This document shows, piece by piece, positions 1,156 to 53,707 of a stretch of 64,000 nucleotides of DNA. Source of the DNA: Octopus sinensis (Eukaryota); the NCBI RefSeq assembly GCF_006345805.1, contig NC_043003.1:116250001-116314000 (forward strand). The letters run 5' to 3'. Each line of letters begins with the position of its first letter. The first letter of the stretch is position 1. Position numbers and translations under genes: made by a program. The notes below the pieces were generated by a model that worked only from the letters and a program-made list of their open reading frames with translations, was not told where the DNA came from and did not search any database.

Positions 1156-1705
1156 CATATATATAAAAACCCACTCTTGTGGGTTCGACTGCGCACCTTC
1201 AAGAGTAAACGAGTGAGACAGAAACAGGCAGAAACAAGGAAAATTCCCCTTTTGTTTGAACATTATGCAGATATTCTTTAAAAAAAACTTTTCTTTTAAT
1301 TTTTCCAAAATAAATTTTGAAATGAGACAGGCTACGCTGGGAATATACAGATATTTGTATTTCGCATTTTGCATCATGCAAGTGTTAATAACGAAATCAT
1401 GAGACCTATGTAATCGTTTTATTTTGTATATATTCATTTGTCTTGCTCATCTTTACAATCTGGCGTTTTTGCTGAGATTTTTCTTCAGAAAACACTCTTC
1501 GTGGTAAGACGATTTGACGTCTATCTTTAGCATATTAGAAAACCAATTTAGTGGTCATTCCTCTTATTAATTGTGATATAATTCTTAAATCTTCGGATTT
1601 TTAAAGATATGCTAGACCACAGGTTTAAACTGATGTTAATTGATTGATATCAATTTCTATTCTCATTATTTAATTTACACCACATACACACACACGTATA
1701 TATAC

Positions 1706-1797
<92 letters not shown>

Positions 1798-1846
1798 GTA
1801 TGTATCTCTCTCTCTCTAATATATATATATATATTTATATATATAT

Positions 1847-1897
<51 letters not shown>

Positions 1898-1966
1898 GTA
1901 TATCTAAATGTATACATATATATATAGAATGATAATTCTAGGATGGAATTTATGAATATTTACTAC

Positions 1967-2100
1967 ATCGCTACGCACGTTTCAGCAGGTCACTTGACCT
2001 CAGCATCCGAGTTCGAATCTCTTAAGATGGGTACAGTATAGTACGTATTATCCCTAGGTATCCGATTGATCATCATCACTGATTTATTTGATCAGGCGAT
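1967..2100 (-). ncRNA. Degenerate type I hammerhead-like motif (core CUGAUCA)
   Basis: Minus strand reads ATCGC-CTGATCA-...-GAAACGTGCGTA-GCGAT; stem I covaries relative to the plus-strand copy; G8 is changed to C. Confidence 0.5.
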
Positions 2101-2204
2101 ACTGCATTACTGGATGAATCACAGATGGGTATTTATCCCGTCGCAATATGTTAGCTATGATACAGTGATAATCATCTCTTTGTGATTTATGCATTAATTT
2201 CAGT

Positions 2205-2337
2205 ATCACCTGATGAAATGAACCAATGATGATGATCAAGCGGATGTCTACGGATAATACAGACGATACTGTACCCATCCCAAGGATACGAACTCTGGTG
2301 TCAAAGTCACGTGATTAGTGGAAACGCGCGTAGTGAT
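2205..2337 (+). ncRNA. Type I hammerhead ribozyme-like motif with long domain II insertion
   Basis: ATCAC-CTGATGA(2210-2216)-~104 nt-GAAAC-GCGC-GTA-GTGAT; stem I ATCAC/GTGAT; palindromic stem III. Confidence 0.6.
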
Positions 2338-2679
2338 GTATCAAATATATATAAATTCCATCCTAGAATTATTGTTATTATTTATCCTAGATTATATTGT
2401 TATAACCATGATGAAACCCGGAAAAACTGACTCACTAATCGGTATCATTAGGCGGCAGCCGGCTTATTGAAATAGGAGCTTTATTTGCATAACCCTAACC
2501 ATAAAAGTACTTAAAAGATATATAAATATATATAATATAAATTAGAGAAAAGCCACTATTATGCAATTCAAACAATGTCAGACATAAACCAAATCATATA
2601 TATAAAATAGAATATATTTTTTAAAACATATAACTAGATCACAAAAAGTACAAAAATGAATAAACAATATATAGTAAGT

Positions 2680-30909: not shown

Positions 30910-31357
30910 GTGTTACCATGTACATTGTTTTGTCTTGGTATAAAAGATGGGCTACAGCAAATATTCTGCCCAATGCAACAGATTTGCTTGTCAGTTGTTT
31001 GATCTTAACCAGTTGAACATGTTCCTTAGTGGCTGACGATATGTGCATCTCTGATCACGAGCAGAATTTGTGGGGGAGCATCATAGCCATGTGTTGAGAG
31101 GGATACTTTGGGGTTTTAATAATTCACCTCTGGAAACATGGCTGTTTCGTTCAGCATTCTTAAATAATCCTTATTCAGGGACCTTTTGAGCGGAAAGGGC
31201 TACTCGACCGGAAGAAAATTCTAACTAGGCTCCAACTGCAAAATCATGCACTGTTTATCTTGATATGAGATCCCTGTCGTACACATATGGTTGTAATGCA
31301 TGTGCCTAGTGTACTCTTATCAGACGGGTAATCACGATGGGTATACTGGGCTTCGTA

Positions 31358-52887: not shown

Positions 52888-52920
<33 letters not shown>

Positions 52921-52924
<4 letters not shown>

Positions 52925-53537
52925 TTAACAATTAAGGATAACTTCTTAATAAGGAATCTTAACAAGAAATTATCAGGTAGATAGCGTGAAAAACCTCATA
53001 AGAGAAAAATTTCGAAAATAATTCTTTCTTATTGAACATATTAATTTATATATAGAGGGCATTATTATACATACATGCCTCACGCTAAGAGGGACATCAG
53101 TCATTTCTACCAAAAAATTTTACTAATCATACCCAATGCAATTTTTCAAAGCAAGACATTTAAAAAATGAATTTAGTCTTGTATCACCTGTGATTTCGTA
53201 CTTACCGCAGAATTGCGACCGTACTCATCAGCAAGACTGATTCTGAATATATCATAAATAAACGACCTGTACCGTCGAAGTCGAACAGCCATCTGCTCTC
53301 TCCCAACGAAGCACATGGAGAAGTTTACATATTATACATCCGGTAAATGGCGGGCTTCTTCGAATTGCATTTCGGATAGGAAAAGTTTTTTCGGAATAAA
53401 TTTAAATTTAACAATTAAGGATAACTTCTTAATAAGGAATCTTAACAAGAAATTATCAGGTAGATAGCGTGAAAAACCTCATAAGAGAAACATTTCGAAA
53501 ATAATTCTTTCTCATTGAACATATTAATTTATATATA
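52921..53537 (-). mobile_element. Non-coding retrozyme-like or PLE-derived unit: ~133-bp direct repeats (starting 52921 and 53404) around a hammerhead
   Basis: Near-identical direct repeats with a period of 483 bp, embedded in (TA)n; no ORF. Confidence 0.7.
53175..53238 (-). ncRNA. Canonical type I hammerhead ribozyme
   Basis: AGTCTTG-CTGATGA-GTAC-ggtcgcaattctgcggtaa-GTAC-GAA-ATCAC-ag-GTGAT-A-CAAGACT; all core nucleotides and all three stems are present. Confidence 0.88.
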
Positions 53538-53540
53538 TAT

Positions 53541-53707
53541 ACTTTATAATAGGGTTCAGCAAAGATTTGCTTTACCAGATACCGAAGTTTAGAAATAGCA
53601 GCCAAGGAACCTTAGCTATTTCCTCTACTTTAAAAAGGTTCTTTGGATGCTATTTCTAAACTTCGGTATGTGGTAAAGCAAATCTTTGTTGAACCCTATC
53701 ATAAAGT
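53541..53707. repeat. Long hairpin (~73-bp arms, ~20-nt loop)
   Basis: ACTTTATAATAGGGTTCAGCAAAGATTTGCTTTACC...GGAACCTT and its reverse complement, with about 5 mismatches. Confidence 0.9.

Follow-up and report, generated by a model that had tools for sequence, protein, structure and literature searches.

The locus lies in a 64,000-nt stretch of the Octopus sinensis genome (contig NC_043003.1, positions 116,250,001 to 116,314,000 of the forward strand; hereafter the window) and consists of two diverged arms in opposite orientation that follow (TA)n-rich target sequence, each arm carrying both halves of a hammerhead ribozyme core (Table 1). No coding sequence is left at the locus. Contigs from public sequencing runs match the arms with 1 difference over 1933-2238 and 0 differences over 2210-2374, and this near-identity indicates that the arms are not an assembly error.

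Table 1. Features of the inverted insertion in the window, and representative arms of the related family B in coordinates of their own loci.
Feature	Position	Strand	Remarks
(TA)n-rich target sequence	1692..1925		Left end of insertion
Inverted 5'-truncated copy of element 3' end	1932..2139	-	Short terminus without tail
Minus arm GAAA box, stem III and stem I 3' strand	1967..1983	-	Predicted cleavage after 1972
Minus arm domain II, 105 nt	1984..2088	-	4 of 7 closing pairs retained
Minus arm stem I 5' strand and CUGAUCA box	2089..2100	-	G8 lost at 2090
Inversion junction	2140..2165		Contains self-complementary TAGCTA (2152-2157) of the element 3' UTR
Direct 5'-truncated copy of element 3' end	2166..2384	+	
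Plus arm stem I 5' strand (ATCAC; family ATCGC) and intact CUGAUGA box	2205..2216	+	
Plus arm domain II, 104 nt	2217..2320	+	Family closing helix 2218-2225 with 2312-2319
Plus arm GAAA box, stem III and stem I 3' strand	2321..2337	+	Predicted cleavage after A2332
Tail of about 135 nt	2385..2518	+	At one end only of an insertion; fixed end point, then mostly TA-/TG-rich repeats
Family B arms	L099:1545-1673, L090:2224-2348 and 34 further arms		77-nt three-way domain II

In the plus arm, ATCAC (2205-2209) leads directly into CTGATGA (2210-2216), a 104-nt spacer (2217-2320) and GAAA (2321-2324), followed by CGCGCG-TA up to A2332 and then GTGAT (2333-2337); the palindrome of stem III is ACGCGCGT (2324-2331). 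Read on the opposite strand, the minus arm has ATCGC (2100-2096), CTGATCA (2095-2089), a 105-nt spacer, GAAACGTGCGTA (1983-1972) and GCGAT (1971-1967), and here one CpG change breaks the stem III palindrome. The two arms are 79% identical over the motif region. The first-pass annotation, made from the letters of this stretch, had described two core halves about 104 nt apart in each arm and the loss of G8 in the minus copy, and both descriptions are accurate, G8 being replaced at 2090. It had also seen no convincing helix closing domain II. That holds for these two copies, which keep 5 of 7 counted pairs in the plus arm (with changes at 2223 and 2317) and 4 of 7 in the minus arm, but not for the family, which has such a helix; it is invisible in the window because both copies there have lost parts of it. 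The two arms are not a functional pair, since they lie on opposite strands and belong to one inverted insertion.

A search of the host genome with the plus-arm repeat returned 1051 first-look candidates, of which the best 40 were scored, giving at least 54 matches. A 21-base piece of the repeat has 129 exact matches in the genome and is held by 9 of 70 sampled arms, from which we estimate, as a rough figure, some 1000 arms in the genome. In longer copies the arm is preceded by a reverse transcriptase (RT), a CxCX5C linker, a decayed C-terminal GIY-YIG endonuclease and some 500 nt of 3' UTR, in that order. The RT upstream of the arm in three of these copies (L034, L044 and L054) shares 44% of 151 aligned residues with a full-length relative. 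A similar full-length protein occurs in Argonauta hians, and the closest full-length proteins are Logan P0152 and Argonauta P0029; a word-based protein search gave no longer relatives. The Pfam GIY-YIG match (E = 0.004) is under the Pfam gathering cut-off.

The linker is of the CNCRCKEEC type in this family, which we call family A, and reads CSCRDKSKC in a second family, B, described below. The endonuclease has CxxC and CxH flanking conserved E and N, as in CNIC-LEE..N..CKH of copy L015. No copy recovered here has an intact N-terminus with its RWK/DKT region, one (L140) having a decayed SKT-GNLY at the place of DKT, and inspection of the copies by eye showed no CCHH. The CxCX5C linker and the CxxC..E..N..CxH arrangement are listed as features of the Hydra clade of Penelope-like elements (PLEs), for which a (TA)n target preference is also described (section 11 of PMC8557442), and inverted 5'-truncated copies with a one-sided tail are described for PLEs in the same paper; all of these are found here, including insertion into (TA)n. 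By these sequence features the arms represent the 3' end of a Penelope-like retroelement of the Hydra clade. An RT tree with 37 rows, built from proteins collected in this analysis with published Hydra sequences compared by eye only, groups both octopus families with the Argonauta protein at an unstarred support of 93/74, the family B branch being long.

Thirteen loci carry two opposite arms, with an identity of 0.86 within a locus versus 0.79 between loci. In the head-to-head pairs inspected, the tail of about 135 nt, with its constant end point, is found on one arm, and the other arm ends before it. Sites of truncation and inversion are concentrated around the self-complementary TAGCTA of the 3' UTR, and AGCT falls within the junction stretch in 9 of 12 head-to-head pairs; the region is possibly a fold-back or cleavage hot spot. 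In related copies the end of the tail (2470-2518) resembles by eye the N-terminal start of a Hydra ORF, in which case the tail would belong to the next tandem unit as its 5' end; the best E reached with a profile built on 41 relatives was 0.38, which is not significant. A non-LTR retrozyme, expected to form tandem units of 150-400 bp that each hold a hammerhead and have no ORF, was rejected, as the copies occur singly or as inverted pairs and run on upstream into PLE coding sequence. A third family in the same genome (L128, L131, L221-L245) is too decayed for comparison, with one poor descriptor match in 25 loci.

The family A motif comprises the core boxes, a 5-bp stem I plus a distal helix, a palindromic stem III and the 104-nt domain II, and it sits in the 3' UTR after the endonuclease stop. 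The spacer measures 103-105 nt in 49 of 70 arms. Core positions C3-A9, G12-A15.1, U16.1 and H17 are intact in 35 of the 70, the plus arm of the window among them and the minus arm not; the variable core position is N7 (T 54, A 13, G 1 of 70). Seven of the 70 arms retain the core together with all counted helices, for instance L002:2842-2991. The family copies bear out the earlier proposal of a PLE-associated type I hammerhead motif with a domain II of about 104 nt. A descriptor with a long spacer accepts the plus arm, and a long-spacer match of any kind arises in 5 of 2000 dinucleotide shuffles of the arm; for the 680-nt family 3' region, 0 of 2000 shuffles match with stem I of at least 5, stem III of at least 2 and stem II of at least 7. 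The bare pattern CTGANGA-N90-120-GAAAC occurs 5 times in the window against 0.52 expected, which is weak alone. The motif is more than chance.

In the column-majority spacer of family A, the ends form an 8-bp helix set off from either box by a single base, as happens in 2 of 500 shuffles. The base of stem II is an A.G mismatch, with A after A9 in 68 of 70 arms and G before G12 in 60 of 70. Such a mismatch would be rejected by Perreault et al., and both it and the change U4C are expected to lower activity (PMC3088659); U.U at this place occurs in published Hydra motifs (File S2 of PMC8557442). Because 10.1 and 11.1 are unpaired, we file family A as a hammerhead variant, not as canonical.

Core columns are more conserved than the rest, averaging 0.955 versus 0.887 for other non-CpG columns (p = 4e-4, 70 arms, columns and paired arms not being independent). 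By subsample, the excess has p = 0.011 in 20 arms found through the endonuclease and p = 0.14 in 11 arms found through the tail. Paired arms give a second view, as a change found in both members of a pair should, barring conversion, be older than the insertion. None of the 137 core sites carries such a change, against 46 of the 1982 remaining sites (one-sided p = 0.045); set against private changes the p value is 0.12, and this pair-based test is weak. Both arms of one pair (L030) have the same damaged stem III.

The stem I difference between the window arms, A:T versus G:C, is real, but its reading as a compensatory change did not survive comparison with the family. Positions 2208 and 2334 each lie inside a family CpG, where the bases decay independently. 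Among 70 arms the pair is G-C in 31, G.U in 6, A.C in 16 and A-U in 9 (Fisher p = 0.13), and among 53 arms it is G-C in 23, G.U in 6, A.C in 13 and A-U in 9 (p = 0.13). In the 53 arms, 2208 is associated at p < 0.05 with four further CpG columns that are not its pairing partners, as strongly as with 2334 or more so. Given the CpG decay and the association of these unpaired columns, compensatory selection is not supported, and the A-U form reflects two independent deaminations. In dead repeats, as this case warns, decay of CpGs in both strands of a helix can look like compensation.

A protein search of the host genome, in which the best 150 of 16059 candidates were scored, revealed family B, whose endonuclease is 44-47% identical to that of family A and whose motif lies at the same place. 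Its spacer is 77 nt in 30 of 36 arms and is closed by a 9-bp stem II with G10.1-C11.1 at the base (0 of 500 shuffles). Stem I is ATCAC/GTGAT, and the palindrome is ACAATTGT. Stem III, a perfect palindrome in either family, is ACGCGCGU in A and ACAAUUGU in B, and the stem I pair is G-C in A and A-U in B. Stems II and III therefore pair in both families despite differing in sequence, each family having its own palindrome and its own closing helix. U4C, a variant that reduces activity in vitro (PMC3088659), is present in 29 of 36 family B copies, and two (L081 and L130) keep CUGAAGA. The inserts of the two families align globally slightly above chance (12 of 1000 shuffles), the local alignment is not significant (131 of 1000), and both contain an inner helix led by CCGGATG. 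A single origin of the long insert is possible, given the grouping in the RT tree. A 35-codon frame across domain II was discarded as a candidate, being absent from family B.

Free folding of the window arms gives z values of 0.23 and -1.06 and no hammerhead fold, and constrained folds of these arms lack the closing helix. The stability of family A domain II is ordinary (z -1.2 for the column majority, mean -0.2 per copy). RNAalifold finds no consensus for it with default scoring, and with ribosum scoring its result is reached in 11 of 100 column shuffles. The older family A subfamily folds to the same rod with z -2.3, and family B domain II folds into a three-way junction with z -2.2. In an intact copy (L002), a fold compatible with the hammerhead is predicted to cost 2.2 kcal/mol relative to the most stable fold, and self-pairing of stem III into a duplex to yield -13.3 kcal/mol. 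A transcript through both window arms is predicted to form a single long duplex of -224 kcal/mol in which the motif is buried. Given the damaged helices or core and this mutual pairing of the arms, the window copies are likely inactive by these predictions. In the younger subfamily, the upstream TGATTCAT (2183-2190) is complementary to the 5' strand of the closing helix (2218-2225), and an alternative inactive fold could form; the older subfamily differs at this upstream TGATTCAT position.

Covariation within the families is weak or absent. Within family A, 0 of 7 closing-helix pairs are changed on both sides; an excess over the whole alignment exists (1/500 and 18/500), within the range that the tool states for relatedness. 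Family B has 0 pairs changed on both sides. Between the families, stems I and III are changed yet still paired, a comparison of two lineages only.

The known relatives of these elements have much shorter spacers. Our comparison set contained 80 related metagenome loci, 63 of them with at least 150 nt of 3' sequence, and spacers up to 250 nt were allowed. A hammerhead was found in 32 of the 63, some of them near-duplicates, and all had spacers of 10-25 nt; the domain II of family A is about four times longer. The other 31 gave none, and a relaxed rescan of 22 of these yielded one 16-nt candidate and no long spacer. Published Hydra-clade hammerheads (Craig et al. 2021; section 11 and File S2 of PMC8557442) are likewise of type I, lie in the 3' UTR after a C-terminal GIY-YIG, and have a short stem III with a GUH-type site and frequent mismatch at the base of stem II; their elements also share (TA)n targets, inverted 5'-truncated copies and a one-sided tail with those described here. 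They differ in that A9-G12 spacers counted from File S2 are at most 26 nt, as against 104 and 77 nt here, that the mismatch is U.U and not A.G, and that the tail is 30-40 nt and not about 135 nt. Hydra-1_Obim, as given there, is a separate family with a short motif.

The minimal and variant PLE hammerheads of Cervera and De la Pena (2014; PMC4209133) resemble ours in their small palindromic helix III, which implies dimers, in motifs 100-700 bp apart on opposite strands, and in occurring mostly as truncated dispersed copies. Unlike ours, they have a short-looped helix II of 6-8 bp, and G10.1-C11.1 is conserved in them but missing from family A. Core halves spaced beyond descriptor limits, as here, are known from PLE-X1_sMoe (about 54 nt, counted from File S2) and from the 'HHR_half_core' of Naiad elements (35-50 nt; PMC8557442), but these have half the length or less and belong to other PLE clades, and for the Naiad cases a closing helix is not reported in the sections of that paper that we used. 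The discontinuous Clec2 hammerhead (as summarised in PMC6155905) is another natural hammerhead that tolerates a large insertion in one arm; it is of type III, with 150-1500 nt in helix I of a host mRNA, whereas here the type is I, the arm is helix II and the host is a retroelement. A search of the open literature returned no report of a natural helix II of about 100 nt in a PLE; the family itself may already be catalogued, for example in Repbase or Dfam. Hammerheads in PLEs are already known; what is new, as far as these searches reach, is a closed domain II of 104 and 77 nt.

The suggestion that standard searches would miss the motif is borne out for Rfam, which gives no hammerhead match at gathering, none at E <= 10 on 1900-2560 and, across four loci, none at E <= 1. 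A long domain II is not needed for such a miss, because Rfam at gathering also failed to find a short canonical hammerhead elsewhere in the window, at 53.2 kb. That motif (53170-53240, minus strand, in an element at about 52910-53600) is a complete short type I hammerhead with a 7-bp stem I and a 27-nt domain II. Its host is a different young repeat, with direct repeats of about 105 nt in (TA)n, 2341 first-look candidates in the genome and best copies 91-99% identical. It appears to be a better candidate for activity than the arms with the long domain II. A further long-spacer descriptor match at 31033-31137 is weak (93 nt, only 2 closing pairs) and likely due to chance, and between 18000 and 24000 there is a strong skew of G over C (0.46-0.56) with raised GC, probably from G-rich simple repeats.

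From these comparisons we consider the locus to be a decayed, 5'-truncated, inverted insertion of a Hydra-clade PLE whose type I hammerhead, with a 104-nt domain II, would likely fold and cut in an active source element; we put the probability of this reading at roughly 0.68. In the RNA of an active element, a type I hammerhead would form with the insert looped out on the 8-bp closing helix II, the palindrome would allow a dimeric helix III, and the cut would fall after GUA, either as a dimer or with the help of the element's protein. PLE hammerheads act as dimers with low activity (PMC4209133), and one, from Anolis, is protein-assisted (PMC11167929). Cleavage may have released element RNA from tandem or read-through transcripts, and reverse transcription may then have begun at two points, leaving one short end and one end with the 135-nt tail; two RT start sites are the explanation given for the tail in PMC11167929. 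Domain II itself may have expanded through small duplications of local sequence, which the motif would tolerate since its helix II is directed away from the core. The insert contains GAT triplets and three ACGGA units, which suggests growth by slippage.

The ribozyme could instead be a relic, already crippled by the growth of domain II, by the A.G mismatch in family A and by U4C in family B, so that the source elements spread without it. Naiad PLEs reached tens of thousands of copies without canonical hammerheads (PMC8557442), and the absent or weak covariation within families, the damaged stem III in both L030 arms and a core excess that is modest and does not show in every subsample all fit such a history. 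The two families nevertheless keep the core, stem I, differing palindromic stems III and differing closing helices across endonucleases that are 44-47% identical, and pair-shared changes avoid the core (0/137 versus 46/1982); we regard the relic as unlikely, while giving it real weight. A very improbable alternative is chance juxtaposition within a repeat, or a short hammerhead whose halves were separated by an intron or by capture of a small RNA. CUGAUGA does resemble a snoRNA C box, weak Rfam C/D matches overlap the arm (E 0.76-9.3), and an intron touches the Drosophila Penelope hammerhead (PMC4209133), but the shuffle controls (0/2000; 2/500 for family A; 0/500 for family B) and the location in the 3' UTR, where Hydra elements keep their hammerhead, speak against it. 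The C/D matches are far under gathering, family B lacks the D-box-like CTGA, whose C is substituted in most older copies, and the insert has no GT..AG pair that would restore a short stem. A snoRNA or intron origin of the insert was rejected on sequence and Rfam scores. A candidate short hammerhead near 2295-2324 ('CTGATG + hairpin + GAAA') was likewise dropped, having no stem I partner and a first base that differs in most older copies.

The long domain II might also be a selected module, for example a docking site for an element protein or part of an internal promoter in the pseudo-LTR. Subfamilies agree in its length, the rod fold recurs in the older subfamily (z -2.3), family B has its three-way junction (z -2.2), and the global alignment of the inserts (12/1000) and the CCGGATG-led inner helix in both point the same way. 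Against this stand the local alignment (131/1000), a conservation of domain II versus flanks (0.897 versus 0.880) that is no useful excess, the placement of most subfamily differences in unpaired or re-paired positions without double changes, and the triplet and ACGGA repeats, which point to slippage. We think selection on the module quite improbable. A broader proposal, that an octopod Hydra PLE lineage evolved active hammerheads with a structured helix II module of 77-104 nt having its own job, as protein handle or internal promoter, is by our reading of the sequences distinctly doubtful; it would hold that short-loop descriptors and Rfam miss these motifs, and it may explain some PLE families scored as hammerhead-less.

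Should the decayed insertion indeed derive from elements whose RNA cleaves, natural type I hammerheads would tolerate a helix II the size of a tRNA, and descriptor-based statements that a PLE family lacks a hammerhead would need a re-check with long spacers. In that case the insert would also offer a deletion test of the purpose of PLE hammerheads.
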